Below, piece by piece: positions 9,302 through 41,050 of a stretch of 64,000 nucleotides of DNA (the first letter of the stretch is position 1; the number at the start of each line of letters is the position of its first letter). Under the pieces are notes generated by a model. The model saw only the letters and a list, made by a program, of their open reading frames with translations, was not told the origin of the DNA and ran no database searches. Source of the stretch: Marsupella aquatica (taxonomy: Eukaryota > Plantae > Marchantiophyta); NCBI GenBank assembly GCA_973895155.1, contig OZ316896.1, positions 7,759,278-7,823,277 of the forward strand. Direction: 5' to 3'. The position numbers and the translations under genes are program-made.

Positions 9302-9345
9302 AGCTGGGTCATAAGGTTGGTGCAGACCGGAGGCTGCACAGGTTT

Positions 9346-9358: not shown

Positions 9359-9370
9359 TGTCGTGGGGAT

Positions 9371-13210: not shown

Positions 13211-13820
13211 ATCATCAGTTATCAGTGTTTTTCATCAGTCGACTTGATATTTGTCGCCACGTCATCTTAGAGAGGCCACCAAGTTGAGGCGCCAAAAAAA
13301 TATGCGAAAAAAAAAATGAACTTTTTTCTCAAAATTTGATGGAGAAAAAAAATGAAATTTATTTCCCACTATGGGTGTCCGTACCGTACGGATACCACAT
13401 CTCGGCGAGGCCCGCCGAGATAGTCCGAGCTGAATTTTGTCAAAAAAAAATTTGGATTTTTTTTTGTTGGAAATTTTTTTTTTTCATTTTTTTTTGTCCT
13501 TACGCCAATCTTGGCGAGGTCAGCTGAGATTGAGACCACATCTCGGTGAGGCCCGCCAAGATAGTATGATGTCCGTACGGTACGGACGCTGAATTTTGTC
13601 AAATGTTTTTTTTGGAATTTTTTTTTTGTTGGAATTTTTTTTAAAAATGATTTAATTTTTTGTTTTGTTTTTTTGTCCTTACACCAATCTCGGCGAGGTT
13701 AGCTGAGATTGAGTCAATCTCAGTTGCCCTAGCTGAGATGCGCAAAAATGCAAAGGCCCTATCTCAACTGCTCAGCTAAGATTTAGAAATTTCAAAGCGA
13801 CAAAAATGATAACTGATGAT
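13211..13820. mobile_element. 610-bp MITE-like element
   Basis: Perfect 14-bp TIR ATCATCAGTTATCA / TGATAACTGATGAT. Internal ATCTCGGCGAGG..CCGAGAT repeats and poly-T runs. TSD unclear. Confidence 0.7.
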
Positions 13821-20139: not shown

Positions 20140-22234
20140 ATGTTGCGGGTTATTAGGGTAAAATGTGTTGTAACGGGTGATGTGATTAGCGTTCCTATGA
20201 CTAACGGAGCAGGTCATCAGCATGTTAGTGAAGATTATCTTTGCGGAAGGTTTGTTGTTAGGAGGAAAGACATTGAAAGCTTAGGGACACCTGCCAACGG
20301 GGCAGTGAATTTTTATTACATTTGTGGTCAGAAATGTTGGGAACTGCACGTAGGTGTCGAGTACACGCTTTCCCTCCAAGGAAAAGGAGTAGTTCACGTG
20401 AAACTAGAGACGGAAGATGCACCAAGGGAATTCATCGACCTCACGTCTGATTGGTGATGACTCATTCTCTGGATCTCAATTGCCGATGGATGTTAGGAAC
20501 ATCAAGAGCAAAGAATGTCATTTTGCAAAGCAATCATTTCCAGTGCATCAGTGTAGCACATCAACGAAAGACATTCATCTTGCGGCTAATAGTGGATGTG
20601 ACAAGCTTCTAAAATCTCCTTCTCTTCCTGTTGTTTACAAAAGAAGTGCAGTAGACGCTCTTTTGAAATCATCTAGTCAAAGTGAGCTATTTCGGTTTGT
20701 GCGATCAGAGACTTTCAAGCACAAGCAAGTAGAATTACTTCCAAAAACTTATAACGGCAATGTCATATTTGAGCTTCCGCCTGTCGATGTGTTGGTTCAA
20801 AGGGGAAACGTCTCCTTAACATGGACCGTTCGAAGGATTGCTATCTCTGACTCAAATTCTCCCTACTTCGGCGAATGTCTTGCCGAAGAAGATGTGGGAG
20901 TTTGGTAAAGTCAGTTGTAGCGGATCACTTGAAGCCAAAACAAGCTTGCAAGTTTTATATCAGAACCTTGGGCCCTCAGTCTTAACTAATACGTGGAGGA
21001 CGTGCAAACACTTGAAGGGTAGTTTTTATTAATTTTTAACTAATAATTATAATTATTACCAGTAATAAGGGAACTTTTTAATAGTAAAATAGAAATAACA
21101 AGGGGTAAACAGGAAAAGGACCCGATCATAGGGGGTCCCACTTCTTTTACACGAAGTGAGGGCCCAGGGTATCAAAACCAATGGTAGGAATAATTGTACC
21201 TCTTGGGAAGGGACCCCCAAGTTAGGAGGCCAACATTGTCCAGGAAAGTTGATTGATTCAAGAGGGATTGTTTGTCGTTATTGTCTTCATCTTCTGTTCT
21301 GTTTGGACTCTTGTTCTGCTGGATTTGGTACCCACAACTTGCGTACCCACAAGTTCTGCTGGATTTGGTGACAACGCAACATATGTCACGACTTGCAATC
21401 CATATGGGTGTCCATAACCATCCTTGTCAAAAGTTCTAGTCTAGAATTTTGGAGATAATAGCAGTCGAAGAGATTCGGAAAGAGCACTTGAAGAATCCTT
21501 CTTCCTCGCCCTGTGTTCTTAAAAATGCAATCACTTGATCTTTGAAGGATGCACAGATAAATCTGTCGATGACATCTCAAAGATGGAAGAGATTGAGATT
21601 TGGCAGTCACTTATGCTTGTTTCGACTCTGCAGAAATTCTTTGCCTTGTTTAAGAGTGTCCGGAAAGATTAGGCGGGGCGAGGAGACCTTGAATATCTGG
21701 TTTGAATGCAGAAGAACGTCAGGTTCCCGTTTGTTCAAAGGTATCTACTTCTAGGGCAAGGCTGTAAGGAGGACCGAGCTCATATTTTCAAAATGATGAT
21801 CAAAGGGCATGGATCCGAAGTAGATTTGTTGCGACAGATGAAAAAGGGTGGACCCCTTGAAGGTGCGTGGGTGAGTTTTGATGTCATGAAATGATTGTCT
21901 TAAGAATGAAGTACTTTTAGCGCCCATGTATATATTTATAACTATCAAGCTTTATGTACAATATTTACGTGTGAGCTAAAAGTGAAGGACACTGAATCTC
22001 TTGAGAAAGCCTGGAGATTAATGATCAAGGTCGCTTTAGAATGGGTTAGATGATGTTCAAATTCACAGATTCATGGCTGATAATGCTTAGTCAGGGTGGC
22101 GTGCGGTCAAAAACATTTTCTTTGGAGGCCATCCAAATCTGGAGAAAGAGAGATTGGATGCTTTTCATTTTTACCAATCTTTGTACCGTCATTCCATTGA
22201 AGGAGTGCTGGAAGACAAACATTTTGAGCATTGC
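20140..22234 (+). pseudogene. Mutator-like transposase, N-terminal and catalytic part, decayed
   Basis: YNGNVIFELPP; Cys/His cluster CRYC..C..C..HMGVHNHP; FKM..GHGSEVDLLRQM..GAWVSFDVMK; FMADNA..GWRAV..ERLDAFHF. Many stops and frameshifts. Interrupted by a solo LTR. Confidence 0.65.
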
Positions 22235-22679
22235 TGTGACACGGATAACGTGTCACTTAACCGAACCCAGGTCATAGATTAGGTCTTATACGGACGTTAG
22301 GACCATAGCCATAGCGTAGAATAGCACGTATAGCCGTCTGTTGCCATTATGAATAGATTAGGAGTAGGTTAAGATGACCGAATGATTACGAGTTCAGGAA
22401 GAGGATTATTACGCGTGACCGAGGTACGGTGGTGGCAGCGGAGTAAAAAATCAGTTAGAAGTCACGCTTGGACCGAGGCGCCAACTTCAGCTCATTATCA
22501 ATGACCAAAACGGCCTGGCCTTCTCACGCTCGGGCTCATCTTGGCACCTCCATAAGAGAGGAGCCAATGGCGCTGCGGGCCATTTGCTCATTTCCACCTT
22601 TTTGGAATTTGCGGACGTTGCCATCCACTCACCTTTCTGATCGAATCAAGTCGACCTTTACAAGGAGATTATCGAGGGA

Positions 22680-25600
22680 TGTGATGCCTAGACAGGAATC
22701 ACTCGGCCGGTTAAGTGGGTAAAGCAGGAAGGCACCCTAGGAACACCTTAGTATAGTGACAAAACAAGGAAAATATAAACAATTAGGGGCAACCATGGAA
22801 CCCGGGCAGAGGCCGGAGGTAAGGCTGAGGGTGAAAACCCGATTAGGGTTAGGGCGCGTTAAGCGTCGGCGGCTAGGAAGGATCAACGGGAAGAAGGACC
22901 AGCAAAGGAGAGGGGTAAGGAGCACTTGCAGGAGATGGTGGCTCATTTGCGAGCACGAACTAGGCAGACGACTACGGGAGGCCAACTACTGTCAGCTGCT
23001 TAGGCAAGCACTTGGGGAGAGAATAGATACCGACGATCGACCTAAGGAGGGTATGAGCAACGTCAATCAAGCGGCACATTTCTGGGGATGCCTGTTCGAA
23101 CGGGCAACTGAGTACATCAAGACTTACGAGGACGAGGAGTCAGAAAGGGCAGCTCGAGAATGGCAGGAGCTCGCTCGATTGTGGGAGCTGCAGAAGACGA
23201 CTTTCTTAGGAGGCGAACTCATCAAGGACGAGTTCCTGTGGACGCCTACTTCCAATCAACTCGACGATCTTCTGTTTTGCAAAGACAGCGTCGTCGGCAT
23301 CCGAGAGGCCATCAAGAACTGCAACGACATACACTGGGAATTAAAGGGTAGCACGGAAAGGTGGACCCAGGCAACGGTGCTAGGAGAAACCTCCACGGCA
23401 GCAGAGGTGAAGAGGAAGGGAGCCGTCAACGATGAAGCCACCCCGGCAAAAAGAACGAGGTCGGCGGCACCAAAGAGGCCAGCCGAGCAGCAGAGCAGGA
23501 GGCAGGGAGAAGCCGAAGAGGAGGAGGTCGATCCCATCAAGGCCATTCCAACCAGGGATGACACCTGGAAGGGCTGGGCGGCAACCCTACCGGTGGAGGT
23601 GCAACTACATTTTGCACGGGAGGAGGATGCATGCTTTACGGCCATGCAGACCAAGAAGTACCAAGGCTTCATGGCCGGATCCGGCTTGGAGGCCTTTGTA
23701 AGATTACCATGGCTGAAGCCGGAGGTACCGGAGTCAGACCTATTAGAATTCGTGGGGTCATGGGAACCCGAGACCAATTGCACGAGGATATATGGGAGGG
23801 ATTTCTATCTTACTCCCAAGGTAATTGCCGAAGTGTTTGGCTTGCCGATAGGCAATAAGACCAAAGTTGATACCAGGAAGACCTTGCCTGACAAGGAGTT
23901 CTGGTCGTTCCCCGGGCCATCAACGAAGAATGGCTTCTTCCGGAACACCTGCACCAACCCGCACATAGGAGAGATGATCGACTTCTTGCGGGTGACCATG
24001 CATTGTAACTTGCCGAGGGCAGAGATCGGCAAGGCACAGGTCTATCTGGCAGAAAGGCCAGACCCAAGCCGGGACTACAACGGGTACCTCCTCAACCAAT
24101 TGAAGAAGATCTTAAAGGAGGAGCAGCAGGTAATCGGCATGGGGAGCGTGTCGCGGCTTGGCTATCACATGCCGCTGTTGTGCCGGTATGCCAGAAGTCA
24201 GACTTTTGCCCCGGTACTTCCCCTGCAGGTAAGGGCACCCGAGGAAGCTCCAACGCCGAGGCCGTTGGCTGAGAAGCCTCAACCACCTGTTAATCCTACG
24301 ATCGAGCAGGCGTTTAGGCCCAGGAAGGAGGACTTGCCGATGCAGCAACCAGGCATGCAGAGTCTGCTGAAACTACTGGAGAAAGAAAAGAAATCGGCAT
24401 CGGCAACAACAACGGCAACGGCAACAATGCAGGACACTACTACAGAGGTAGGCCTACACCGGCTCACAAGAGAAAACCCCTTTGCTGGAAACAAGGAGAG
24501 AATCAGGCCGAAATCCAAGCCAGGTGTTCGAATGTACGTGGGAACCTCAAGCTCCGAATCTGAGGCAGAATTGCCTGAAGCTCCTACCGACGAAGAGGAG
24601 AGGGAGAAGCCGGACGTCCAAGAGGTAGAGGAGGCAGTGGAGGACTGCAGCCATGATAATTCCGGCTATGGGTCGGACCATCACGTTCCAGGAGTAAGGA
24701 CCTGTGGCCGGTTTGTCCCCACACTTCCAAGGGTAGTGCGAGGGGACCCCAACCAGCAGAGTAGCCCTGAGTCTCCCCCACCAGATGTTGCTCCCCCGAG
24801 CTTCGACGGCATAAAACAGACGGTGCAGGAATTTCAGGAGCGAATCAAGCAGGAGGAAGAGGCCGCCCTGGCTAAGGAAAAGGATTTACCAGGAGGAGAT
24901 TGGCCGGAGGACATCAGGCGGCTAGCCGAAAAAGGAAGCAAACCTCTAGCCATGATTGAAGAGATCCGCAGGACGGCGTGGGAGCAGAGGCCACGATGGG
25001 CGATGCCGATCACTTCTACTTACTCCACCTACGCTAAGAATAGAGCCATGGAGTATGGTGAGATGTGTGGGGAACTTGCGCTCGGCATCTTTGGAGAGGA
25101 GTTGGAGATAGGACCCTTTTTCCATAGGGAGCAGTTGGAGAAGCACCAATTAGAAGAAGCGGTGGCTTTAGAGAGAAGCAAGAAGGAAGAGGTCATTCGG
25201 CGGCTTAGGAGGATGGAAGCCGAGATTGAAGATCTAAGGGTGGCCAAGAAAGCCCAAGATGAACTGCGGATTAAACGACATGAGCTGAACATCATGCAGG
25301 GGCAGTTGGACACCGCGCAGGCTGATAATCAGAATATCAAGGATAAACTGACTCAGACGCAGGAAGAGTTGGCCGACACGATCAAAGAGAGGGAGAAGTG
25401 GAAGCAAGAGCTGAAGAATACAGAGGAGGCCCACATAACAGCCAACAGCCGGGCCATGGCGGAGACCCAAAGAAAGGAATGGGCGTTGAAAGGGGAGCTC
25501 GAGAAAATCCGCGGAGCCCTTGAGCAGAAGGAGGTCGAGTTAGGGAAATCCTATCAAGGGATTATGGCGCTGCAACAGGAGCTTGCGTCCCTGACGGCCA

Positions 25601-27315
25601 GCTTCAAGGCCGACCTAAGGGAGAAGGACGAGATGCTCGAACAGACTTACGCCAAGATGAACCAGATGGAGTCTGTCATCATTGCAGAGCTCGACAAGGA
25701 GCTAAGAGCAACCCAGGAGGAGAGGGCTACCTTGAAGAAGGAATTGGAGGAAGCCCACAGGGAGCAGGAGGAGGCCAAAAACGAGCTGGAGGGGGCACGT
25801 AAGGACCTGGATGAAACCCAAGAGGAGTTGGAGGAAATCACGAGGAAGATGGAGAACCTACAGCGGCAGGCCGACAACCAAACAGAGTGGCTGAAGAAAC
25901 AAGCCGCAGTATTTAAATGCTTAGCTGCAGCAGGTCCATCTCCCGTTGGGACAAACCAGTTACCAGGGGTGGTAATTGCCGAAGGACAAGCCACGCCACC
26001 TGCACCAGTGCCGGAAGTAAGTGGGAAGGGGAAGGGACCAGCTGCCGAGCCACCAACAAAGAAGAAGCGGAAACCTTCAGGGTCAAGGAGTAATACGACT
26101 TCACAGGCCGTGGTGATCAAGGAGGTAGACCCAGCACCGACCCCAGACAGGGTCACGGCTAAGGATCCAACTACCCTAGGGGAAGGGGAGGCCGAAGCCG
26201 AGGGAGTGACTGAGGCCGAAGCCGTGGGTATTGCCGAGGCCGGTGTCGAGACTGAAGCCGAAGGTGGACCCAGTCAGGCCGATGGAGAGTTGACTCAGTC
26301 AAGGGCAGGTAATCTGTCAGAGAATGAACCTACGGCAGTGGCTGAGGAGGAAGCGTTGGGGGCGTCCATTAAGGATCCACCACCGGTGTCGTGACGGTGC
26401 AAGGGCACCGTTCCTTTTAGGGAGGGCGGACGTGGAGGGAGGAGGCGTGAGTGGGCAGGGCGGGCGCGGATCTCCACGTTTAGGATTAGGATCAGAACCA
26501 GGAGCGGCCCTGACACTTAGCTTAGTGGGATTGCGGTCCCACTGGTAGGAGCAACACTTGTGCTCCTGCCTTGCTGTACATAGGTAGATTCGGGCAAGTA
26601 GATTACTGTTAAGTAGATTAGGCTTACGATGCAAAGAATGGCGGATCCACTACCAGGATAAGTACCTGGGCAGCGGGGAGCTCAGGGCCTCTTCTTTAGC
26701 AAGTTTTTAGTTTGCACCAGCCGGGCTGGGATCAAGTAGTACGAGAAGCTCTCGGTTAGTCATACAGTGACCCTTGTGTATATTCATGTTTCCTCATGCC
26801 TAAGAGCTGAATAGAGTTGGCCTCACGGCTTAGTTCGCAGAACTTGTGTATGAGATGTACTGTTTGTATGGCAAGTGCATGGTATGACTCAGTCAGAATG
26901 AGTCATTTTGCTATTTGTGTGTCGCATTAACTTGTGTGAAGAGTGCCCACATCAACAGAAGGAAGGAAAGTAAGCAGGGGAGTGAGAGTTGGATGTGTCG
27001 AGCTGAGAGAGGTCTTAGCGGCTTAACCAAGCCTATTGGGGATCATTCCGGCGGCGGAATCCAAACATACCTAACAAGACGGAGGGGAAGACAGGGGAAG
27101 ACAGGGGAAGGCCTATATTAGGCCGGCTACGTATCTCATGACCCGATGAAGGATCTGTCCAATATATGTGTGTAAAATGTTAATAGTAGTAGTAGAAGGT
27201 TAGCAGCGTCCCATGCCGCTAAGCCGCGGAAACGGCCTCGCCAAGCACGAAACCTGCGGGAATCGGCTTGAGCTGGGGGGTTTCTTGGGTTTAGGGAGCC
27301 ATGGGACGCACCACA
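22680..27315 (+). repeat. 5' LTR (4636 bp)
   Basis: TGTGATGCC...GCACCACA, followed by the PBS; near-identical to 31706-36365. Confidence 0.95.
22756..26394 (+). CDS. LTR-encoded large protein (plant-transposon-type globular domain plus long coiled coil), 5' copy
   Basis: 1212-codon uninterrupted ORF entirely inside the LTR. Homology to the solo-LTR ORF suggests the start is ATG 23053 (MSNVN). E/K/Q heptad-rich region at about 25120-25910. Confidence 0.85.
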   Translation: MTKQGKYKQLGATMEPGQRPEVRLRVKTRLGLGRVKRRRLGRINGKKDQQRRGVRSTCRRWWLICEHELGRRLREANYCQLLRQALGERIDTDDRPKEGMSNVNQAAHFWGCLFERATEYIKTYEDEESERAAREWQELARLWELQKTTFLGGELIKDEFLWTPTSNQLDDLLFCKDSVVGIREAIKNCNDIHWELKGSTERWTQATVLGETSTAAEVKRKGAVNDEATPAKRTRSAAPKRPAEQQSRRQGEAEEEEVDPIKAIPTRDDTWKGWAATLPVEVQLHFAREEDACFTAMQTKKYQGFMAGSGLEAFVRLPWLKPEVPESDLLEFVGSWEPETNCTRIYGRDFYLTPKVIAEVFGLPIGNKTKVDTRKTLPDKEFWSFPGPSTKNGFFRNTCTNPHIGEMIDFLRVTMHCNLPRAEIGKAQVYLAERPDPSRDYNGYLLNQLKKILKEEQQVIGMGSVSRLGYHMPLLCRYARSQTFAPVLPLQVRAPEEAPTPRPLAEKPQPPVNPTIEQAFRPRKEDLPMQQPGMQSLLKLLEKEKKSASATTTATATMQDTTTEVGLHRLTRENPFAGNKERIRPKSKPGVRMYVGTSSSESEAELPEAPTDEEEREKPDVQEVEEAVEDCSHDNSGYGSDHHVPGVRTCGRFVPTLPRVVRGDPNQQSSPESPPPDVAPPSFDGIKQTVQEFQERIKQEEEAALAKEKDLPGGDWPEDIRRLAEKGSKPLAMIEEIRRTAWEQRPRWAMPITSTYSTYAKNRAMEYGEMCGELALGIFGEELEIGPFFHREQLEKHQLEEAVALERSKKEEVIRRLRRMEAEIEDLRVAKKAQDELRIKRHELNIMQGQLDTAQADNQNIKDKLTQTQEELADTIKEREKWKQELKNTEEAHITANSRAMAETQRKEWALKGELEKIRGALEQKEVELGKSYQGIMALQQELASLTASFKADLREKDEMLEQTYAKMNQMESVIIAELDKELRATQEERATLKKELEEAHREQEEAKNELEGARKDLDETQEELEEITRKMENLQRQADNQTEWLKKQAAVFKCLAAAGPSPVGTNQLPGVVIAEGQATPPAPVPEVSGKGKGPAAEPPTKKKRKPSGSRSNTTSQAVVIKEVDPAPTPDRVTAKDPTTLGEGEAEAEGVTEAEAVGIAEAGVETEAEGGPSQADGELTQSRAGNLSENEPTAVAEEEALGASIKDPPPVS

Positions 27316-27319
27316 TTTT

Positions 27320-27338
27320 TGGCGCTAGATGGAGGGGG
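27320..27338 (+). other. Primer binding site
   Basis: TGGCGCTAGATGGAGGGGG just after the LTR end; resembles the PBS of Tat-type plant elements. Confidence 0.8.
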
Positions 27339-27384
27339 CATTTCTTAAGCCGTGAGATATGAAGTTAGAACGGAAGCGTAGGTA

Positions 27385-30378
27385 ATGACTGACCTTACGC
27401 CGAGGGAAGAAAGAGTGATTCAACGGGAGAGAGCTCGACTGCAGCAGCTCGCCGGGTGGCATGATACACAGCGACTGAGAGGGGCAGAAAGAGCTGGTAG
27501 CTCCGAAACTGGAAGTGGCGTCAAAGAAGACATACCAGAAGAAGAGTCGGTAAGGAGAAGTGAGTCTCCAACCGACATGGGGGAACCAGAGGCACGGCCA
27601 GACGAGAGGCCAGGGACCAGATTGAGCCAGCGGTCGCGCATACATTACAAGGCATTTCATGGGAGAGGAGATGAGGATCCGGACGAATGGTTGGATGATT
27701 TCGAGGGAACCGCTGCAACAAATGGAGAATCGGCCATCAAGATGCAGATTCTTCCCGGCCTGTTCAAGGGTGAGGCTAGGCCTTGGTACAGAGCATTAGA
27801 TGTGGAAGATCAAGCCATCTGGGATATCTTCAAAACACTCTTTGTTAAGGAGTTTCGACCCATTGGAACTTCAGAACTAGCAGTGCTGAAGTTGGGACAA
27901 CTTCGGTTCAAGGAGAACAAATCCTTCAGGAAGTTCTTGCAACGCTTTCAGAAACTGGTAAGACGTACAAAGACCAATGCATCTGAAGGTATGCAACTTC
28001 AATGGTTGGTGAATGCTTTGCCACAGAAGATGAGTTTTGCAATTAGGAAGGAGAACCCGGAGACTTTAGCCGAAGCAATTAAGGATATTCAATTATACAT
28101 TAATGCAGATATCACAAGCCGGAAGAAACAGCTTAAGTCTGAGAGTTCCTCATCAGAGGAGGGATCACCCCATAAGAAAAAAGATAAGAAGAAGAAACAT
28201 TCCAAGAAGTCTAGAAGTGATAAGTCAAGCTCGGATAGTGGGAGTAGCAAGAGTGAGTCATCTTCTAGTTCTGAAGAAGAAAAAACTAGGAAAAGGAAGG
28301 GCAGAAGGAGAGGGAAGACGAAAGTCAAGATGGAGGCTAAGCCACTAGATAACATCGTAGCCCTTACCGAGCAACTTAAGGCTATCATTGCAGAGGTAAA
28401 ACCAAAGAAGAAGGCAGTACAGGAGGATAGCTCTGTATGGTGTGCCTTATGTTATAAAACCGGACACCATAAAGATGCGTGTCCTAAGCTTAATACTAAT
28501 CATGTTCGGCATGTGGCCGAGATCAGACCATGTCAGGGAGAAGTAGAGTACTTTTTGGGAGATGCCGCTGATAGTGTTTTCGGCATCAGTGAGACTGGAG
28601 CACGAGACCTATCCAACAGACCTGCATCTCTGTGGTCAGGGTTAAGGAACAATCCAGGAGAGATGTATCCTCGGATTATTCAGAACCCGTCAGTACCTCC
28701 TAGGCCGAATGTGCAAAGATTTGCAGCGTGCTATAATTGTGGTCAACCTGGCCATTTTGCTAGAGAATGCCCGAATGCACGCAAACAGGGTGATGGACAA
28801 CCAGCTCAGCTATGTATGGGATGCCGACAGGAAGGTCATATGCTAGGGCAATGTCCTACTTGGTTGGCAGGCCTGGCCGCAAATCATAAGCTTTTGCCGA
28901 TCAAGATCTTACCGCCAGGTACTACCCCCGGAGGAGTTCAAATCAACCACATCGAACTAGGATGGCAAGAGGATGCCGAGGCAGAGTTCGTACCATCTGA
29001 TGATGAGGCCGAAGCCCTATCAACCTTCTCAGAGGAGGATTTAGATCATGATTGCTACCGGGTCTCTACTCGATCTACCAGAAGGAAGGAAAGGTGGGAT
29101 GGGCTGGCCAAAAATAAAGGGAAGGTTACGGAGGAAAGGATCGACTCTTCGTCAACATCAACAGAAGGAGAAGGGAGGGCTCCGGCAATACAGGTAAGCC
29201 ATGAGCCCACCAGTGAAACCAATCCTTCACAAGATAGCGACTTCAATCGAGATCATCCTAAGTTGTTCTACCCCTCTGTTACGGCTAGTGTTAAGGAACA
29301 ACTAAGAGAATTAGAAACCCTGGAGAATACCGAAGCCATTGCCAAGGATGTAAAACGAGCAAAAGCATTGTTTGCTTCGGAAGACCCAACAGCTGTGGAG
29401 ACTAGCGTGGCAAAACTAGCCGAATCCAAGACGGAAACACCACCAGAAGAGAAGCTGATTGTTCCCTATGACCTGGCTAAAGATGTACTAGAATCTAGAG
29501 TCTCGGCAACAGTAGGTCAACTATTGAAAAATAGCCCGTACTTCCGGAAGCAATTAAGGAAGGCTATTCTCGGCAAGCCAAGATTACCCAAGGTAGCAAC
29601 CAGATCCGACGTACTAATGATAGAAGAAGATCAAGGAGCCCCAGCATTACCATTAATGATTCAAGGAGAATTATTACTACGGGTACCCATCGATGGAGGA
29701 TCAGGGGTATGTATTATGATTGATTCAACAGCAAAAGGGTGGGGTCTAACACCGGAGATGACTGGAAGAGTGTTGAACATGGCCAATGGATATCAGGTCA
29801 TTCCGACGGGAGTGTTAACCGGCATCAAGACAGAGATAGGAGGTATCTTCTTTAGCATTAACTATGTAGTAATGAAGCCGGTAAATCCTACGTCATTCCG
29901 GCTATTGATTGGTAGGCCATGGCTGTACCTAGCCGAGGTAATAGAAGATTGGGGTAAAAAGCAGTTCACTTTCGGGACCCCCTCTATCACGGTATCCTGG
30001 GACACTAAGGATGACCGTAGGAAAAGCATAAGGGAAGTAGATGGGTACGACAGTGGACTGGAGTCAGCCGATGAAGTACGTTGGTTAGAATGCCTCACTA
30101 ACCTAACCGAAGAAGGTGTCTTTGGACCAGAGGTACCCCCCAGCGGATTATGGCAAGAACCAATGGAAGGTGACTTGGAAGAAGAAGACGAAGAGGTCGA
30201 GGACTGCTTTACAATAGAATCCACCTTTTTAGCTGCAATTCCGGAGGAAGTAAAGGATGTAGACCAATTGGATGAAACGGCTAAGTGGGGAGCAGTAGCA
30301 GGGACAGTGGATTTTCTGCAGGCGTTGTGGCAGAGCCGACGGGGTCCACAACGCCATCGATCATTGGCAAGGAATTAA
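27385..30378 (+). CDS. gag: Gag (three CCHC knuckles) fused to aspartic protease
   Basis: FHGRGDEDPDEWL..ARPWY capsid region; CALCYKTGHHKDAC, CYNCGQPGHFAREC and CMGCRQEGHMLGQC; PIDGGSGV and LLIGRPWL protease motifs. Confidence 0.92.
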   Translation: MTDLTPREERVIQRERARLQQLAGWHDTQRLRGAERAGSSETGSGVKEDIPEEESVRRSESPTDMGEPEARPDERPGTRLSQRSRIHYKAFHGRGDEDPDEWLDDFEGTAATNGESAIKMQILPGLFKGEARPWYRALDVEDQAIWDIFKTLFVKEFRPIGTSELAVLKLGQLRFKENKSFRKFLQRFQKLVRRTKTNASEGMQLQWLVNALPQKMSFAIRKENPETLAEAIKDIQLYINADITSRKKQLKSESSSSEEGSPHKKKDKKKKHSKKSRSDKSSSDSGSSKSESSSSSEEEKTRKRKGRRRGKTKVKMEAKPLDNIVALTEQLKAIIAEVKPKKKAVQEDSSVWCALCYKTGHHKDACPKLNTNHVRHVAEIRPCQGEVEYFLGDAADSVFGISETGARDLSNRPASLWSGLRNNPGEMYPRIIQNPSVPPRPNVQRFAACYNCGQPGHFARECPNARKQGDGQPAQLCMGCRQEGHMLGQCPTWLAGLAANHKLLPIKILPPGTTPGGVQINHIELGWQEDAEAEFVPSDDEAEALSTFSEEDLDHDCYRVSTRSTRRKERWDGLAKNKGKVTEERIDSSSTSTEGEGRAPAIQVSHEPTSETNPSQDSDFNRDHPKLFYPSVTASVKEQLRELETLENTEAIAKDVKRAKALFASEDPTAVETSVAKLAESKTETPPEEKLIVPYDLAKDVLESRVSATVGQLLKNSPYFRKQLRKAILGKPRLPKVATRSDVLMIEEDQGAPALPLMIQGELLLRVPIDGGSGVCIMIDSTAKGWGLTPEMTGRVLNMANGYQVIPTGVLTGIKTEIGGIFFSINYVVMKPVNPTSFRLLIGRPWLYLAEVIEDWGKKQFTFGTPSITVSWDTKDDRRKSIREVDGYDSGLESADEVRWLECLTNLTEEGVFGPEVPPSGLWQEPMEGDLEEEDEEVEDCFTIESTFLAAIPEEVKDVDQLDETAKWGAVAGTVDFLQALWQSRRGPQRHRSLARN
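30309..30355 (+). promoter_or_regulatory. Putative -1 programmed ribosomal frameshift signal
   Basis: In-frame G_GAT_TTT heptamer (30309-30315), 5-nt spacer, perfect 10-bp stem GGCGTTGTGG / CCACAACGCC. The -1 frame is the pol ORF. Confidence 0.75.
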
Positions 30379-31692
30379 ATACCAAGGGATCGGCATACAA
30401 GCCGATTACGAGGGCAGAACAAATTGAGGCCCTATTAGAAGCCAAGAGAGCACAACGGCCTAACTCTCAGGAGCAAGAGGTGGATGAGATGGACAGACAC
30501 GATCCAGAGCCAAGGCAGGAAGGGGAGCCGACCACTAATTCAAAACCGAATAGACCGGTAAGGGGACAATCTATGGACACCAAGGAAGGGACCGACTCGG
30601 CTAGTCCAGCCGAGATCCCAGTTTATGGAGGTATGAGATTAGAGAGACTGGAAGCCGAACTGGACCCGAATTTGAAGAAGCAGATTAATATGATCCAAGC
30701 ACGGCAATATCGGAAGCTCGACTTAGGAGAGGGAAGAGAACTGAACTTAGGGAGAAACCTAGCACCTGAGCTCGAGAAAGAGATCAGTGACTTATTGATT
30801 GAATTTCAGGATGTGTTTGCATGGAGTCACCAAGATCTAAAGGGAGTAGATCCAACACTAGGGGAACATCGAATTGATCTCATGTTAGGAGCCAAATCAT
30901 TTCGACAACCAATTCGAAGGATGATGCAATTACTACGGCTAGGTTCATGTATGAGCAGATCTTCACCAGGTATGGAGCACCCCTAGAATTAGCTAGTGAT
31001 AGAGGAACCCATTTTTTGAATGATATAATTAGTCGTTTAAATGAGCAGTATTTAGTTAAACATAGGCCTACTACTCCCTACCATCCAAAGGCAAACGGGT
31101 TGACAGAACGAGCAAACGGAATCATAGGAAAGATATTGAACAAGACAGTAGCTCAGAACAAACTCGATTGGGATGATAAATTGTTTGCTGCTGTTTTTGC
31201 TTACAATCTTGCCTATAAATCCACTACCGGTCATACACCCTTCTTCTTAACCTTTGGACAAGAAGCCCTGGTACCCATGCAACTTGAGATACCGACATTT
31301 CAAGTTACAATTGAGGAAAGAGCCTCAGCGGAGGAGAGCCTAAAGGAGCGAGAATATAGGTTAGAAGCTTTAGAGGAAGCGAGAATGATTTCAGCCGAGA
31401 GAGTAGAATATAGACAGAATATCATGAAGCAGCAGTATGATAAAAGGTTAAAAGTAGTTAGTATTCATACCGGTGATCTTGTGCTACTTTATGACAGTAG
31501 GTATAGTAGGTTTCGAGGAAAGCTTTACACTCGCTGGTTAGGACCCTTTAGAGTAACCATGATGTTCCCCAATGGCTCCGTACAATTGGCCAACATTACG
31601 GGAGAGGTATATCCAGTTCGCATCCATTATGACCGCCTCAAGAAATACTATATGGACGAAGATGAAGTTGTTCGCGAGGACGCTTCACAATT

Positions 31693-31705
31693 AAGTGGGG
31701 AGCTA
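31693..31705 (+). other. Polypurine tract
   Basis: AAGTGGGGAGCTA before the TG at 31706. Confidence 0.75.
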
Positions 31706-34700
31706 TGTGATGCCTAGATAGGAATCACTCGGCCGGTTAAGTGGGTAAAGCAGGAAGGCACCCTAGGAACACCTTAGTATAGTGACAAAACAAGGAAAAT
31801 ATAAACAATTAGGGGCAACCATGGAACCTGGGCAGAGGCCGGAGGTAAGGCTGAGGGTGAAAACCCGATTAGGGTTAGGGCGCGTTAAGCGTCGGCGGCT
31901 AGGAAGGATCAACGGGAAGAAGGACCGGCAAAGGAGAGGGGTAAGGAGCACTTGCAGGAGATGGTGGCTCATTTGCGAGCACGAACTAGGCAGACGACTA
32001 CGGGAGGCCAACTACTGTCAGCTGCTTAGGCAAGCACTCGGGGAGAGAATAGATATCGACGATCGACCTAAGGAGGGTATGAGCAACGTCAATCAAGCGG
32101 CACATTTCTGGGGATGCCTGTTCGAACGGGCAACTGAGTACATCAAGACTTACGAGGATGAGGAGTCAGAAAGGGCAGCTCGAGAACGGCAGGAGCTCGC
32201 TCGATTGTGGGAGCTGCAGAAGACGACTTTCTTAGGAGGCGAACTCATCAAGGACGAGTTCCTGTGGACGCCTACTTCCAATCAACTCGACGATCTTCTG
32301 TTTTGCAAAGACAGCGTCGTCGGCATCCGAGAGGCCATCAAGAACTGCAACGACATACACTGGGAATTAAAGGGTAGCACGGAAAGGTGGACCCAGGCAA
32401 CGGTGCTAGGAGAAACCTCCACGGCAGCAGAGATGAAGAGGAAGGGAGCCGTCAACGATGAAGCCACCCCGGCAAAAAGAACGAGGTCGGCGGCACCAAA
32501 GAGGCCAGCCGAGCAGCAGAGCAGGAGGCAGGGAGAAGCCGAAGAGGAGGAGGTCGATCCCATCAAGGCCATTCCAACCAGGGATGACACCTGGAAGGGC
32601 TGGGCGGCAACCCTACCGGTGGAGGTGCAACTACATTTTGCACGGGAGGAGGATGCATGCTTTACGGCCATGCAGACCAAGAAGTACCAAGGCTTCATGG
32701 CCGGATCCGGCTTGGAGGCCTTTGTAAGATTACCATGGCTGAAGCCGGAGGTACCGGAGTCAGACCTATTAGAATTCGTGGGGTCATGGGAACCCGAGAC
32801 CAATTGCACGAGGATATATGGGAGGGATTTCTATCTTACTCCCAAGGTAATTGCCGAAGTGTTTGGCTTGCCGATAGGCAATAAGACCAAAGTTGATACC
32901 AAGAAGACCTTGCCTGACAAGGAGTTCTGGTCGTTCCCCGGGCCATCAACGAAGAATGGCTTCTTCCGGAACACCTGCACCAACCCGCACATAGGAGAGA
33001 TGATCGACTTCTTGCGGGTGACCATGCATTGTAACTTGCCGAGGGCAGAGATCGGCAAGGCACAGGTCTATCTGGCAGAAAGGCCAGACCCAAGCCGGGA
33101 CTACAACGGGTACCTCCTCAACCAATTGAAGAAGATCTTAAAGGAGGAGCAGCAGGTAATCGGCATGGGGAGCGTGTCGCGGCTTGGCTATCACATGCCG
33201 CTGTTGTGCCGGTATGCCAGAAGTCAGACTTTTGCCCCGGTACTTCCCCTGCAGGTAAGGGCACCCGAGGAAGCTCCAACGCAGAGGCCGTTGGCTGAGA
33301 AGCCTCAACCACCTGTTAATCCTACGATCGAGCAGGCGTTTAGGCCCAGGAAGGAGGACTTGCCGATGCAGCAACCAGGCATGCAGAGTCTGCTGAAACT
33401 ACTGGAGAAAGAAAAGAAATCGGCATCGGCAACAACAACGGCAACGGCAACAATGCAGGACACTACTACAGAGGTAGGCCTACACCGGCTCACAAGAGAA
33501 AACCCCTTTGCTGGAAACAAGGAGAGAATCAGGCCGAAATCCAAGCCAGGTGTTCGAATGTACGTGGGAACCTCAAGCTCCGAATCTGAGGCAGAATTGC
33601 CTGAAGCTCCTACCGACGAAGAGGAGAGGGAGAAGCCGGACGTCCAAGAGGTAGAGGAGGCAGTGGAGGACTGCAGCCATGATAATTCCGGCTATGGGTC
33701 GGACCATCACGTTCCAGGAGTAAGGACCTGTGGCCGGTTTGTCCCCACACTTCCAAGGGTAGTGCGAGGGGACCCCAACCAGCAGAGTAGCCCTGAGTCT
33801 CCCCCACCAGATGTTGCTCCCCCGAGCTTCGACGGCATAAAACAGACGGTGCAGGAATTTCAGGAGCGAATCAAGCAGGAGGAAGAGGCCGCCCTGGCTA
33901 AGGAAAAGGATTTACCAGGAGGAGATTGGCCGGAGGACATCAGGCGGCTAGCCGAAAAAGGAAGCAAACCTCTAGCCACGATTGAAGAGATCCGCAGGAC
34001 GGCGTGGGAGCAGAGGCCACGATGGGTGATGCCGATCACTTCTACTTACTCCACCTACGCTAAGAATAGAGCCATGGAGTATGGTGAGATGTGTGGGGAA
34101 CTTGCGCTCGGCATCTTTGGAGAGGAGTTGGAGATAGGACCCTTTTTCCATAGGGAGCAGTTGGAGAAGCACCAATTAGAAGAAGCGGTGGCTTTAGAGA
34201 GAAGCAAGAAGGACGAGGTCATTCGGCGGCTTAGGAGGATGGAAGCCGAGATTGAAGATCTAAGGGCGGCCAAGAAAGCCCAAGATGAACTGCGGATTAA
34301 ACGACATGAGCTGAACATCATGCAGGGGCAGTTGGACACCGCGCAGGCTGATAATCAGAATATCAAGGATAAACTGACTCAGACGCAGGAAGAGTTGGCC
34401 GACACGATCAAAGAGAGGGAGAAGTGGAAGCAAGAGCTGAAGAATACAGAGGAGGCCCACATAACAGCCAACAGCCGGGCCATGGCGGAGACCCAAAGAA
34501 AGGAATGGGCGTTGAAAGGGGAGCTCGAGAAAATCTGCGGAGCCCTTGAGCAGAAGGAGGTCGAGTTAGGGAAATCCTATCAAGGGATTATGGCGCTGCA
34601 GCAGGAGCTTGCGTCCCTGACGGCCAGCTTCAAGGCCGACCTAAGGGAGAAGGACGAGATGCTCGAACAGACTTACGCCAAGATGAACCAGATGGAGTCT

Positions 34701-36365
34701 GTCATCATTGCAGAGCTCGACAAGGAGCTAAGAGCAACCCAGGAGGAGAGGGCTACCTTGAAGAAGGAATTGGAGGAAGCCCACAGGGAGCAGGAGGAGG
34801 CCAAAAACGAGCTGGAGGGGGCACGTAAGGACCTGGATGAAACCCAAGAGGAGTTGGAGGAAATCACGAGGAAGATGGAGAACCTACAGCGGCAGGCCGA
34901 CAACCAAACAGAGCGGCTGAAGAAACAAGCCGCAGTATTTAAATGCTTAGCTGCAGCAGGTCCATCTCCCGTTGGGACAAACCAGTTACCAGGGGTGGTA
35001 ATTGCCGAAGGACAAGCCGCGCCACCTGCACCAGTGCCGGAAGTAAGTGGGAAGGGGAAGGGACCAGCTGCCGAGCCACCAACGAAGAAGAAACGGAAAC
35101 CTTCAGGGTCAAGGAGTAATACGACTTCACAGGCCGTGGTGATCAAGGAGGTAGACCCAGCACCGACCCCAGACAGGGTCACGGCTAAGGATCCAACTAC
35201 CCTAGGGGAAGGGGAGGCCGAAGCCGAGGGAGTGGCTGAAGCCGAAGCCGAGGGAGTGACTGAGGCCGAAGCCGTGGGTATTGCCGAGGCCGGTGTTGAG
35301 ACTGAAGCCGAAGGTGGACCCAGTCAAGCCGATGGAGAGTTGACTCAGTCAAGGGCAGGTAATCTGTCAGAGAATGAACCTACGGCAGTGGCTGAGGAGG
35401 AAGCTTTGGGGGCGTCCATTAAGGATCCACCACCGGTGTCGTGACGGTGCAAGGGCACCGTTCCTTTTAGGGAGGGCGGACGTGGAGGGAGGAGGCGTGA
35501 GTGGGCAGGGCGGGCGCGGATCTCCACGTTTAGGATTAGGATCAGAACCAGGAGCGGCCTTGACACTTAGCTTAGTGGGATTGCGGTCCCACTGGTAGGA
35601 GCAACACTTGTGCTCCTGCCTTGCTGTACATAGGTAGATTCGGGCAAGTAGATTACTGTTAAGTAGATTAGGCTTACGATGCAAAGAATGGCGGATCCAC
35701 TACCAGGATAAGTACCTGGGCAGCGGGGAGCTCAGGGCCTCTTCTTTAGCAAGTTTTTAGTTTGCACCAGCCGGGCTGGGATCAAGTAGTACGAGAAGCT
35801 CTCGGTTAGTCATACAGTGACCCTTGTGTATATTCATGTTTCCTCATGCCTAAGAGCTGAATAGAGTTGGCCTCACGGCTTAGTTCGCAGAACTTGTGTA
35901 TGAGATGTACTGTTTGTATGGCAAGTGCATGGTATGACTCAGTCAGAATGAGTCATTTTGCTATTTGTGTGTCGCATTAACTTGTGTGAAGAGTGCCCAC
36001 ATCAACAGAAGGAAGGAAAGTAAGCAGGGGAGTGAGAGTTGGATGTGTCGAGCTGAGAGAGGTCTTAGCGGCTTAACCAAGCCTATTGGGGATCATTCCG
36101 GCGGCGGAATCCAAACATACCTAACAAGATGGAGGGGAAGACAGGGGAAGACAGGGGAAGGCCTATATTAGGCCGGCTACGTATCTCATGACCCGATGAA
36201 GGATCTGTCCAGTATATGTGTGTAAAATGTTAATAGTAGTAGTAGAAGGTTAGCAGCGTCCCATGCCGCTAAGCCGCGGAAACGGCCTCGCCAAGCACGA
36301 AACCTGCGGGAATCGGCTTGAGCTGGGGGGTTCCTTGGGTTTAGGGAGCCATGGGACGCACCACA
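31706..36365 (+). repeat. 3' LTR (4660 bp)
   Basis: Copy of 22680-27315 with scattered substitutions and a 24-bp in-frame extra repeat near 35225. Confidence 0.95.
31782..35444 (+). CDS. LTR-encoded large protein, 3' copy
   Basis: 1220-codon intact ORF, nearly identical to 22756..26394. Confidence 0.85.
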   Translation: MTKQGKYKQLGATMEPGQRPEVRLRVKTRLGLGRVKRRRLGRINGKKDRQRRGVRSTCRRWWLICEHELGRRLREANYCQLLRQALGERIDIDDRPKEGMSNVNQAAHFWGCLFERATEYIKTYEDEESERAARERQELARLWELQKTTFLGGELIKDEFLWTPTSNQLDDLLFCKDSVVGIREAIKNCNDIHWELKGSTERWTQATVLGETSTAAEMKRKGAVNDEATPAKRTRSAAPKRPAEQQSRRQGEAEEEEVDPIKAIPTRDDTWKGWAATLPVEVQLHFAREEDACFTAMQTKKYQGFMAGSGLEAFVRLPWLKPEVPESDLLEFVGSWEPETNCTRIYGRDFYLTPKVIAEVFGLPIGNKTKVDTKKTLPDKEFWSFPGPSTKNGFFRNTCTNPHIGEMIDFLRVTMHCNLPRAEIGKAQVYLAERPDPSRDYNGYLLNQLKKILKEEQQVIGMGSVSRLGYHMPLLCRYARSQTFAPVLPLQVRAPEEAPTQRPLAEKPQPPVNPTIEQAFRPRKEDLPMQQPGMQSLLKLLEKEKKSASATTTATATMQDTTTEVGLHRLTRENPFAGNKERIRPKSKPGVRMYVGTSSSESEAELPEAPTDEEEREKPDVQEVEEAVEDCSHDNSGYGSDHHVPGVRTCGRFVPTLPRVVRGDPNQQSSPESPPPDVAPPSFDGIKQTVQEFQERIKQEEEAALAKEKDLPGGDWPEDIRRLAEKGSKPLATIEEIRRTAWEQRPRWVMPITSTYSTYAKNRAMEYGEMCGELALGIFGEELEIGPFFHREQLEKHQLEEAVALERSKKDEVIRRLRRMEAEIEDLRAAKKAQDELRIKRHELNIMQGQLDTAQADNQNIKDKLTQTQEELADTIKEREKWKQELKNTEEAHITANSRAMAETQRKEWALKGELEKICGALEQKEVELGKSYQGIMALQQELASLTASFKADLREKDEMLEQTYAKMNQMESVIIAELDKELRATQEERATLKKELEEAHREQEEAKNELEGARKDLDETQEELEEITRKMENLQRQADNQTERLKKQAAVFKCLAAAGPSPVGTNQLPGVVIAEGQAAPPAPVPEVSGKGKGPAAEPPTKKKRKPSGSRSNTTSQAVVIKEVDPAPTPDRVTAKDPTTLGEGEAEAEGVAEAEAEGVTEAEAVGIAEAGVETEAEGGPSQADGELTQSRAGNLSENEPTAVAEEEALGASIKDPPPVS

Positions 36366-36477
36366 AGGGATAAGAGCGGAATGTGGCAAGATTTAGTCAG
36401 GACGAGCGAGGCCTCCACGAGAAAAAGGACCAGCCGGGTGGGAACGTGGACTCAACGAACCGGACTACGAGGTTAGT

Positions 36478-38793
36478 ATGACCCTTACAGCCTTGGGATT
36501 TTGGACCTTGTTTGGCGAGGTAGGTGCTAAGTTCTCCGAGACTTACTGGTACTCTTGTCCCGAGAAAGCCGCTTACGAACGAAGATACGCGAAGCTGGTG
36601 ACCAAGGTAGCACTGGTTAATTGCGAAAGGATAGCCATCACTAGGGATTCCAGCTACAACGAGCTGCGAGACTACATCACCGAACTATATCTCAGCGAGG
36701 ACGGGCTTAGATCGGTAGCAGAGGCGATTCTTGAAGTCCCGGCGAAGTTCTTTAAGCTGAAGGGCAGCCAGCGGCTTACTCAAGCAAAGTTCGACAAGAT
36801 TCCGGGGTACCTAGACCAGCAGATCGCAGCCGAAAAGCATCAAGAAGACATCAGCAGACAACGGGAAGCGGCGCGTAATCTTACGTTCCTCGAGGAAAGC
36901 TCCAACGCCTTCAACTGGGATATGGCTACCCCGATACCACCAGTGCCTCTGCCGATGACCATCGGCTTACCGCCGAACCGGTCCCAAGTCCGTCCAATGA
37001 TCAACACCAAGTGTTCTTCGGGTTCTGAGCGAGTTAGCCCGCAACTCGAACAACGTTCTCGTAAGCGGCCAAGGATGACGACGGCCCCCGAATCAACAAC
37101 GCGAACCAACGCCACGCCTGCACCTGCCCCGGAAAACCCCCCGGCCAACCAGAACCGACGGCCCCCGGATAACCCAAAGTCCAACTTATTACAGGTAATC
37201 CGCGTCCCCGAAGTAGTCTGGATCGCGATCAAGAAACTCGAACACGCGGACTATCTGAAGGAGCATCAGTTGGAGCAGTTCGCTCACTTGCTATGGAGAC
37301 CGTGCACCGCCGGGCCGAAGGAGATTTGTGAGTTCATCTCCAATTTCGACACTGACGCATCGACCACCAAGGTTTCGGGGCAGGCCTTATCACTCACGGA
37401 GCATCGGTTAACGCAAATCTTCTGCCTGCCAACCGGGCCGGTGCCGGTTGAACTCTGAATTCGGGATAAGGAGTATACACCGCGGCACTTCAAACCTGAG
37501 GGTAAGACGGATAACGGATACAAGCAGGGGTCGTGCACCAACTTAATCTGCATGGAGCGTCTTAACTTCATACGGACTACCTTACACATGATTGAGCCAC
37601 GATCCGAGATTTCCCTCTGCACGATCATGCAGGTGGAACAGTACAAACGGCGGAACTGGGCCCAATTCTTCTACCGAAGATTCTCGGGGGAGCTGAAGCG
37701 GGCTCAGGGTGGTATGGCTATTGGGGGGAAAACTTACTTGGGAAGTCATATCGCCATTATCCTCGCCTGGTACAAGGCACGGCGGGAGGCCAGAGGAAAG
37801 AATATGGCCACCTCAGCCCCGACTAATATCACCCCCGCCCCAGAGGAGGCAACCCCGAGTGCGCGGACTACCGTCCCTCGGGCAAACCTCGAGCCGGAAG
37901 CCCCGACTAATACTCCGCCACCTCCTCCTATGGAAATTCCGCCGCCCCCTTCCGTCGAGCCTCTGCTACCCGCAGTACAACCACCCCCAATCCCTCCACC
38001 ATCGGAAGAAACCTTCCTCTCCCCAGCGCAGACTACGGAGGAGCTCGTTGCCCCGCCCGAGGAACCACCGGTACCCGAGAGGATGGAGGACTACCAAGTA
38101 GCCCCGGGGACCATGGCCTACGACCTGGTCCATAAGTTTAGCCAGACTATGTCTGGGGAGCTGGCGACGTACATCGGACAACAAGTCTTGGCGTACTTTC
38201 AACCAGCCTTCTTCATGTTAGAGCACCAACCACGGATCGTAAGCCGCTTAGAAGAAGAACTCATGGCGAAGGGGAATGAGATCGGGTGCCTCCAGATGCT
38301 GGTAGAGCACCTCGAGGAGGAGGCCACTACCCGCCACGAGGAGTTAGTTCGCACCGTCAAACAGAGGGACGGACTAACCCAGGAGTTAAGCGGAGGGCAA
38401 GCAGATCTCAAGAAGCTGGACAACACCGTGCTTCAATTACGCTCAGAATCTTCGGCTCGGGTTACTAGCCTGACCGACCTCAACAAACAATTTCTACAGG
38501 CAGCGCAGCAGGTGGCTAGTCTCTCCGCCGAACGGGATAAATTGTTGGCGCAGGACCAGATCCATCGCGACTCCATTAACCAGCTCAACCTGGAGGTAGT
38601 GCGGCTCCAAATCAAGGCTGATGAAGCTGCAAACGAGGCGGAGGAGGCGGTGCGGGACAACAAGGCCTTGCAGGACCGCGTTACTCTGCTCGTCCTCCAG
38701 CGGGGAAAACCTGGGCCCACCTCTGATCAAGGCGGCTCGAGGTCTCGCCCCGACAAGGGGACCAGCCCTGGTCCAACCACAGCACACACGTAA
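36478..38793 (+). pseudogene. Solo-LTR-encoded homolog of the LTR protein, with one in-frame TGA
   Basis: ORFs 36478..37458 and 37552..38793 share a frame. LEQFAHLLW..EFISNFD..IFCLPTG..NGY..CTN..YLGSH aligns with LEAFVRLPW..EFVGSWE..VFGLPIG..NGF..CTN..RLGYH. C-terminal coiled coil. Confidence 0.8.
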
Positions 38794-39783
38794 GGGGTGG
38801 TTAGCGAAGGGTGGAAGCAGGCGCCGCGCGAGGCAGTTAAGTCAGCGGCATCTTTTGGTTAGGTGCAACGACAGAATGGCTGTCATTAGGCGCCGATTAG
38901 CGGCAGTAGGAAGAATTAGGGTCGGATCAGTTAGGATCAGCCAATGTAGGATGGAGTCCATCAACGAACTAGATTTTTGTCAGTAGGCTTGGCCGCTGCC
39001 ATCCCGGTTGGCACCCTTGTCATCGATGGTCAACCAGTCAGTGCGGCACGGCCAGTAGTCAGAAGGTAGTTAGGCAGTAGGTAGTATCCCGGAAGGTAGT
39101 ATCCTCCGGTTCTCTTCCGCAAACTGTAGTATTTAGGCTTCCCCTTCCGCTAGGAAGGGGGAGAAGGCTTAGTTATCTCAGCAGAAGAAAGGTGAGGCAC
39201 GGGGAGTCCCGGCCTGAGCAGGGTCAGAGCGCACCAAGGAGTGAGAGCCAGAGTCAAGCTTGCTGGGCAAGTGCAAGGCGGGGCCTCGTAGAGACTGGGC
39301 ATCTACTGCCGTTGGGCCTACTGACCCCCTTTGAAGTCGAGTCAACCATGTAAACTGATGCTTCGCTGAGTAAATGTAGTCTTTTCCCTCGAATGTTTCC
39401 GCAAGTAACTGGTGTTGTGAGTATGCTTTGTCTGGGCAAAGGCACCATTTTAAGGGATGTACCGGGTGCGGACTAATGGTAGGGATTGCCACCCATTGTA
39501 TGTCACAAGGTTCTATCGCGTCGATGGCTTGAAAAGCCCCAAGCCGGGAGTTAGTCCGAGTCACTAACTGAGGGAGGATTCCAACGGTGGAAAATAAAAG
39601 ATACCTATGACTAGTACAAATTGCTTAAGTGTTATACCAGTAAGTATATCGGCTTAGCCCGACTTAGGGCTAATCGGGGCCACTACACACCTCCTTGCCC
39701 GAACCCTCACCCCTACTGGTGGTCGAGGTCGCGCCATGGCACTAAACTGGATTTAAGGCCCAGGTTAGGGACGCGACAATTGC

Positions 39784-39960
39784 CTCCTCTAGGATAAGCT
39801 CAAAAATGCATAAACATTTGTCGAAGCGTACAGGATTTCCCGAGAAATTGATTTGTGGTGGAGATCTGGAAATTGCATTCCTGGGAAGCTTTGGATGCTA
39901 CAAGGCTGGATCTCTTGGTGGGTTGTAAGATGGTGGTAGTGGGGAAACTTTATTAGACTT
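39784..39960 (+). pseudogene. Continuation of the MULE transposase after the solo LTR
   Basis: EIDLWWRSG..GWISWWVVRWW*WG, then a GTGAGT splice donor at 39961 and a palindrome at 40002. Confidence 0.6.
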
Positions 39961-40016
39961 GTGAGTATCACCCTTTTCAATTCCTGAATAGACTTCTACA
40001 CTAGCGTCTAGCGCTA

Positions 40017-40215
40017 TTATTATTAATTTTATTTTTTATTCATCTTTATTCCGCGTGAACCCCACGGATGAGGGAACCAGTAGGCCCAAGGCAAAAGGGC
40101 CACAAGGCCAAAAAGGACAACAACAGATGTATCCCTACATACCAGAGGGGAACAACACCACAAGACCAATCCGAGCCAATTCAGGAGCTAAGCAATGATC
40201 CTAATACTCCATGCT
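40017..40215 (-). mobile_element. Probable LINE 3' end with A-rich tail
   Basis: Minus strand ends AATAAAGATGAATAAAAAATAAAATTAATAATAA. Orientation matches the LINE ORF2 ending at 52118, which is separated from it by the CACTA element. Confidence 0.5.
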
Positions 40216-41050
40216 ATAGTGTTATTCGATAGGATTTACATCGGATCCCTTCAGGAAAATTGACGCAAAAATTTCTATCATCTGATGCTATTCCCAACGC
40301 ACTTTGCGATGCGTAAACCATCGCATATTGACCATCGGACTTCCATCGGACTTTCCGATATTTTGGACAACGGATGTTCCGTTGTAATGTGTTACGGATA
40401 TTTTATGTCCGATGTAAAATGAATCGGATAATTAACATGCGACAGCACACGACGATTTCCTATGTCCGATACTATTTACATCGGGATGTCCGATATATTT
40501 GATATGGCAATTTGCGAAGTAATTTTTATCGGACATTGCGTTATTTATAATAACGGAAAGTGCGTTAGTTTTTGTATCGGACTATCCGATATGTTTAAGA
40601 TGGGAACCCTCAAGGAGGGGTTCGATGCATTGGGGATGGGAAAGTTCGAAGGCAGCAGCATCGGACACTGCTATATTACCGATGCAGATGGTAACGGACT
40701 TGCAACGGATTATCAAATGTTCTGGGGGTGGAATACAGGGTTTCATGGGTGGTTTTTTGGGGGTTTGGGTATTGGTTTAGGGTTGAAGGTGACATACACC
40801 AATTAGGAACCAAAGATAATGCTATAAACACGAGGTCAAAATATCATATTCAAAAAGGGGATCACCCTAATATGTACAAAATGGATTAGGCCTACTGGGT
40901 AGACCCATCCTGGTCGTGATGGCACGATAGAAGATGTAAAGAGAGCTTTGACTAGAGACTACACTGAGCTATATACAAGGTACCTCCTAGTGAGTGTCTA
41001 ATCAAAGCTGTCTAGCACTAGATACCCGGCCACCTAAATGCAACTAACCT

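Follow-up and report, generated by a model that had tools for sequence, protein, structure and literature searches.

The closest described counterparts of the gene reported here are the extra open reading frames (eORFs) of OTA-clade plant retrotransposons—the PMD-coiled-coil eORFs of Ogre and Tat IV-V, Transposase_28 of Retand, and PF03078 and PF20167 of Athila—which combine a globular domain with a coiled coil in elements without a chromodomain (excerpt of PMC4408406). These eORFs are described as internal to the element (PMC7264820; excerpts of PMC6317226 and PMC11963269), occupy the spacer between pol and the long terminal repeat (LTR) in Athila and Tat elements (PMC7264820; excerpt of PMC11963269), and have a function that is a long-standing question (PMC7264820; excerpt of PMC4408406). 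The window analysed here is a stretch of 64,000 nucleotides from the liverwort Marsupella aquatica (contig OZ316896.1, positions 7,759,278 to 7,823,277), numbered below from its first letter. It holds a Ty3/Gypsy retrotransposon, the focal element, in which a long ORF lies inside the LTR, is present twice, and has a homologue kept in a solo LTR. In the mainly open-access literature searched, which did not include the eORF survey of Steinbauerova et al. 2011 or the per-element table of PMC6317226, we found no plant retrotransposon with an ORF entirely in its LTR.

Individual aspects of this locus have precedents. The focal ORF has the same sense and the same place on the genomic RNA as the 3' forward eORF of OTA elements, but it carries an extra N-terminal domain and stays below the Pfam cut-offs. 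LTRs above 3 kb combined with an extra ORF are found in rice Retrosat2, RIRE3 and RIRE8 and in Ogre; the ORF0 of the rice families, however, sits upstream of gag-pol and apart from the LTR (excerpt of PMC3485330), and LTRs of up to ~5 kb occur in OTA elements including Ogre, and length alone is not unusual (excerpt of PMC6317226). Similar in layout is the sag gene of mouse mammary tumour virus (MMTV) type, which codes for a protein within the LTR and persists where only a solo LTR is left; solo LTRs make up 490 of 527 sag contigs (excerpt of PMC4667437). The focal locus shares both properties, with its ORF entirely inside the LTR and retained in a solo LTR. Its protein is nevertheless unrelated to Sag (~320 aa), lacks a membrane segment, is several times larger and belongs to a plant retrotransposon; another viral gene, nef, overlaps U3.

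The layout, a long gene entirely inside an LTR, is well supported. Self-BLAST pairs 22679-27315 with 31705-36365 at 98.9% identity, and the two LTRs (4636 bp at the 5' side, 4660 bp at the 3' side) both start with TGT, end with ACA and together account for 67.9% of the element, around an internal region of 4.4 kb. Paired LTRs with TG...CA ends, a 5-bp target-site duplication (TSD), a primer-binding site (PBS) as well as a polypurine tract (PPT) are those of a Ty3/Gypsy element, as is the domain order of Gag, protease, first reverse transcriptase (RT) residues and integrase, with most of RT and all of RNase H deleted. Each LTR contains one long sense ORF. Measured from stop to stop, the two span 1217 and 1225 codons, and counted from their first ATG, 1199 and 1207; a 1199-codon stop-free frame has a chance of ~1e-24 at this base composition. 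The first-pass annotation had given these ORFs as 1212 and 1220 codons, which is slightly off, but its placement of them wholly within the LTRs agrees with our coordinates, its boundaries (set by TSD AGGGA, PBS and PPT) are reinforced by the TGT...ACA ends and self-BLAST, and its estimate of an LTR share of about 68% and its report of a deleted RT hold as well. The deletion, at ~30921-30924, also removes RNase H and the integrase N-terminus. The insertion is young, because the LTRs differ by only 27 substitutions (24 transitions; Kimura two-parameter distance 0.0059) and one in-frame 24-bp indel. We take the PBS to correspond to tRNA-Asn. Asn primers are recorded at 12% in Athila, 15% in TatII and 4% in Retand (excerpt of PMC6317226). 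At 30285-30378, the Gag-protease ORF and the pol remnant overlap in different frames, through a programmed frameshift or a mutation.

The focal element landed in a solo LTR that is older than itself and belongs to a second family, and it splits this LTR in two. Between 21500-22679 and 38793-41000, exactly one pair of TGT...ACA ends is flanked by a matching 5-bp duplication (22235 and 39778, TSD ATTGC). We identify this flanking sequence as a solo LTR because its two pieces sum to 3853 bp, neither has a PBS or PPT beside it, and no short direct-repeat pair is hidden inside it; none is hidden inside the focal LTR either. This flanking LTR, which the first reading did not note, carries a homologous ORF. 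Although the solo LTR shows no DNA similarity to the focal LTR (best E 0.16), the two proteins share 26% identity (E 3e-17), and a profile built from outside relatives alone matches exactly three places in the window, namely the two LTR ORFs and the solo-LTR ORF. In a leave-one-out comparison of the N-terminal domain, with segments cut after seeing the alignment, each of four sequences beat 1000 of 1000 shuffles. Both LTR families end in non-coding tails, of 921 bp (focal) and 985 bp (solo LTR). Two families without remaining DNA similarity thus keep the same LTR plan, one of them caught as a solo LTR.

The encoded protein combines several recognisable parts (Table 1), among them the coiled coil and KKKRK motif of the first reading. 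That reading had also proposed a plant-transposon-type domain. By features, the main globular domain is Transposase_32/ATHILA-like (atlas cosine 0.88-0.89 with 148-151 shared features for PF20167 and PF03078, values below 0.9 that count as a lead only), but it has no Pfam match to PF20167 (Transposase_32) or PF03078 (ATHILA ORF-1) at E<=10, nor do its relatives at E<=1, and it stays below the curated cut-offs for PMD (PF10536) and VANC (DUF1985). Its sole whole-domain fold match is to VANC21, a DNA-bound protein; this match of aa 253-478 is weak, at 6% identity, and suggests a faint resemblance of the LTR protein to the transposon anti-silencing factor VANC. Compared with VANC proteins (VANDAL/MuDR) and the MAIN/MAIL1 PMD proteins, the focal gene differs in its place in a retrotransposon LTR, in this low identity and in showing no repeated target motif. 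No transmembrane segment was found in the LTR protein (maximum 19-residue hydropathy 0.84) or in five homologues (range 0.83-1.65). Residues 1-86 are Arg-rich (net +14), and a second in-frame ATG at 23053 (M87) matches the start positions of homologues. GC3 is 0.63-0.66 in both LTR ORFs (22795-26394 and 36478-38793) versus 0.40-0.45 in the element's own gag and integrase.

Parts of the element recur in 11 runs from nine studies, half or more of it in 5 of the 11. Contigs were compared for 4 of the 14 listed runs, and their starts or joints fall precisely on 22680, 27315 and 22235. Summed depth over the ORF is 3.8-3.9x that of the internal region in runs X1, X2 and X4, much as over the LTR tail with 3.5-4.8x (for X4 without the integrase bins, X6 not included, and depth not equivalent to copy number); this hints at an ORF that moves along with its LTR and at solo LTRs being frequent. 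One X2 contig departs from the window at 30924 with 32 different letters, which we take to resemble a continuation of RT; on account of this resemblance, RT-containing family members are likely to exist. Other X2 joints connect an exact LTR end to an LTR interior (27315 to 24176, 24743 and 26461; 26116 to 22680), as copies inserted in other copies' LTRs would. Among the indels listed (12 of 25), eight fall in the focal LTR and one of these in the ORF, which makes up 78% of the LTR (one of five clusters, P = 0.01). A full HMMER search with the main domain gave 22 matches, 19 of them real. Three of the ten that were looked up are Calypogeia fissa proteins, and protein P0106 has the full plan of N-domain, linker, main domain, Pro-rich linker and coiled coil. 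Among 77 integrase matches, eight are named C. fissa, one Selaginella and one Adiantum; in a tree of 25 matches and two window rows, with organism names for four rows and no lineage labels, the focal integrase and the two C. fissa rows included share a 100/99 clade, in keeping with a liverwort host.

How the gene came to lie in the LTR is suggested by the end of pol. The pol stop lies 10-12 bp inside the 3' LTR and the PPT within integrase coding sequence, leaving no pol-to-LTR spacer. In the simplest history that we infer, plus-strand priming in an ancestor would have shifted to a PPT right where pol ends, whereby the whole 3' Athila/Tat-type accessory region would have become U3; both LTRs would then receive the gene at each reverse transcription, and solo LTRs would retain it after recombination between LTRs. 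A TATA-like motif, reported near 27110 in the first pass and located here at 27112-27120 (CCTATATTA), 200 bp from the LTR end, would fit a U3 location of the ORF. A 10-bp tandem repeat occupies 27083-27110 in the LTR tail; directly after it, the motif lies within a small perfect inverted repeat (27109-27123, 6-bp arms). A 32-nt inverted match (81%, E 0.002) links 22975-23006, in the 5' part of the ORF, with ~26797-26827 in the non-coding tail, as possible long-range RNA pairing or by chance. In the 3' copy, the first ATG to follow the pol stop, 104 nt downstream, is that of the ORF, and its Kozak context is optimal. Expression could proceed through a subgenomic RNA, either a spliced one or one whose promoter would lie within or ahead of the first 115 bp of the LTR, or alternatively by reinitiation after the pol stop. 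Homologues begin at the residue equivalent to M87, so an LTR-internal promoter might also give rise to a shorter product.

As to function, our tentative preference, which falls somewhat short of probable, is that this young, RT-deleted element carries in each 4.6-kb LTR a 1,200-codon accessory gene for a predicted VANC/PMD-like DNA-binding oligomer that relieves silencing of its own family's LTRs, or transactivates them. The protein would enter the nucleus through its basic motifs, oligomerise via the coiled coil and bind family-specific LTR DNA with its globular domain, so as to serve the family's many copies in trans, defective ones like the focal element among them. The first-pass proposal of an accessory gene copied at each retrotransposition, possibly an anti-silencing or chromatin factor, is partly supported, through the LTR and solo-LTR location. 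Several observations weigh against the anti-silencing interpretation. The intactness of the ORF is uninformative (probability of no stop in 22 substitutions, 0.41), its substitutions between the LTRs comprise 9 synonymous and 13 non-synonymous changes (P = 0.16 versus neutral), and the 19 listed differences from other runs comprise 5 and 14. As many as 21 of the 24 LTR-pair transitions fall at CG or CHG sites, versus ~38% expected; such a concentration marks methylation since insertion, so that its two intact genes did not keep the focal copy unmethylated. No repeated target motif stands out, and CpG depletion is similar to that of a neighbouring Copia element.

The same DNA-binding fold and coiled coil would suit equally well a chromatin tether that steers integration towards heterochromatin or own-lineage LTRs. 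The integrase has no chromodomain, the focal element landed inside a related family's LTR, and the four listed X2 joints between an exact LTR end (27315 or 22680) and LTR interior resemble nested insertions. Yet a family as abundant as this one would be found nested by chance, and with one insertion site and joints on short contigs as the basis, we consider a tether unlikely. We are equally doubtful of a post-transcriptional role, Rev-like or 'env-like', in RNA export, movement or the scaffolding of particles, with the U3 place an accident of PPT movement: the env-like 3' position on the genomic RNA and an Arg-rich N-terminus followed by a long coiled coil would accord with it, but neither the LTR protein nor five homologues have a transmembrane segment, homologues whose start corresponds to M87 lack the Arg-rich stretch, and the sole whole-domain fold match is DNA-bound.

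The neutral-looking changes since insertion and the stop in the solo-LTR copy could also mean that the ORF is an ancestral accessory gene, no longer needed and persisting through recent transposition of the family. This is quite improbable, given that two domains are kept at 26-41% identity across families without DNA similarity, that 1199 codons are open, that the sole inter-LTR indel is in frame and that the listed indels avoid the ORF. Only their unusual length would suggest that the 4.6-kb repeats enclose short true LTRs and arose by duplication or misassembly, an explanation largely refuted and very improbable: PBS, PPT, TG...CA ends and TSD all lie at the 4.6-kb limits, neither LTR family hides a short direct-repeat pair, the copies differ at 27 sites, and 22680 and 27315 are the precise starts or joints of contigs from other runs.

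Table 1. Features of the focal element and of the solo LTR that it splits, in window coordinates.
Feature	Position	Strand	Basis
TSD ATTGC of host solo LTR, left copy	22230..22234	.	
5' piece of solo LTR, 445 bp, TGT start	22235..22679	+	contig of run X2 starts exactly at 22235
TSD AGGGA of focal element, left copy	22675..22679	.	sequence
5' LTR, 4636 bp, TGT...ACA	22680..27315	+	self-BLAST
LTR ORF, 5' copy, 1199 aa, ATG in optimal Kozak context	22795..26394	+	
Conserved N-terminal domain, aa 87-195; no known family; common to solo-LTR ORF, P0103/P0106 and Calypogeia P0095	23053..23379	+	
Main globular domain, aa 253-478; features like those of Transposase_32/ATHILA; weak fold match to VANC21 over the whole domain	23551..24228	+	
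Predicted coiled coil, proline-free, ~aa 791-1040	25165..25914	+	
KKKRK, motif like a nuclear localisation signal, aa 1089-1093	26059..26073	+	
Non-coding LTR tail, 921 bp; promoter, R and U5 presumed (U3/R/U5 assignment inferred)	26395..27315	+	
PBS, 4-nt spacer after 5' LTR	27320..27337	+	sequence
Gag-protease ORF, 997 aa: Retrotrans_gag, Ty3_capsid, zf-CCHC; aspartyl protease match weak	27385..30378	+	domain search
pol linker and first RT residues, in another frame than Gag-protease; cut at ~30921-30924	30285..30924	+	
Integrase core and C-terminus, without chromodomain match; stop codon 31715-31717 inside 3' LTR	30925..31717	+	
PPT-like tract within integrase coding sequence	~31693..31702	+	
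3' LTR, 4660 bp	31706..36365	+	self-BLAST
LTR ORF, 3' copy, 1207 aa	31821..35444	+	
TSD AGGGA of focal element, right copy	36366..36370	.	sequence
3' piece of solo LTR, 3408 bp, ACA end, no PBS following	36371..39778	+	
Homologous ORF in solo LTR, ~770 codons, interrupted by one in-frame stop (37456-37458); has both domains plus a Pro-rich linker and a coiled coil	36478..38793	+	
TSD ATTGC of host solo LTR, right copy	39779..39783	.	

The window holds other mobile elements. At 2187-11507 lies a second Ty3/Gypsy element with ~1.4-kb LTRs that contain tandem copies of a 22-bp unit, 5 on the 5' side and 11 on the 3' side; its gag-pol is nearly complete, with a few breaks, and it has no homologue of the LTR ORF. 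A ~220-bp inverted repeat pair at 12457-14905 (81% identical, 2 kb apart) is likely a non-autonomous DNA transposon. A CACTA-type DNA transposon occupies 44573-51239 (Transposase_21, DUF4218, DUF4216), and the ORF directly before its transposase has a SET-domain match (44573-45481, E 3e-05), possibly a captured histone methyltransferase domain. The Ty1/Copia element at 56679-63354, on the minus strand, is very recent, because its 168-bp LTRs are identical.

The locus offers a compact, testable case for the question of what extra ORFs do, since it combines a pair of families that have diverged, a target present in many copies and a structural lead towards an anti-silencing factor of proven activity, and it runs against the assumptions of plant transposable element annotation that LTRs are non-coding and solo LTRs inert. 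No eORFs were seen in early Tat lineages or moss Tat-like elements, and eORF acquisition has been dated to gymnosperm Tat III (excerpt of PMC4408406); if the layout proves general in liverworts, that acquisition would move back to early land plants, and the evolution of LTRs could be followed through the genes they carry, which can be aligned, as sag allowed for betaretroviruses. A bolder extension, which we think unlikely, is that solo LTRs are working genes for a VANC/PMD-fold factor that unsilences its family in trans, in a liverwort Tat/Athila-like lineage, and that the fold is an early-land-plant retrotransposon protein, older than angiosperm MAIN/MAIL and dicot VANC, that surveys overlooked because it lies in the LTR. 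If this is true, a solo LTR would be a self-contained anti-silencing cassette instead of the end point that it normally is once the host has removed an element.

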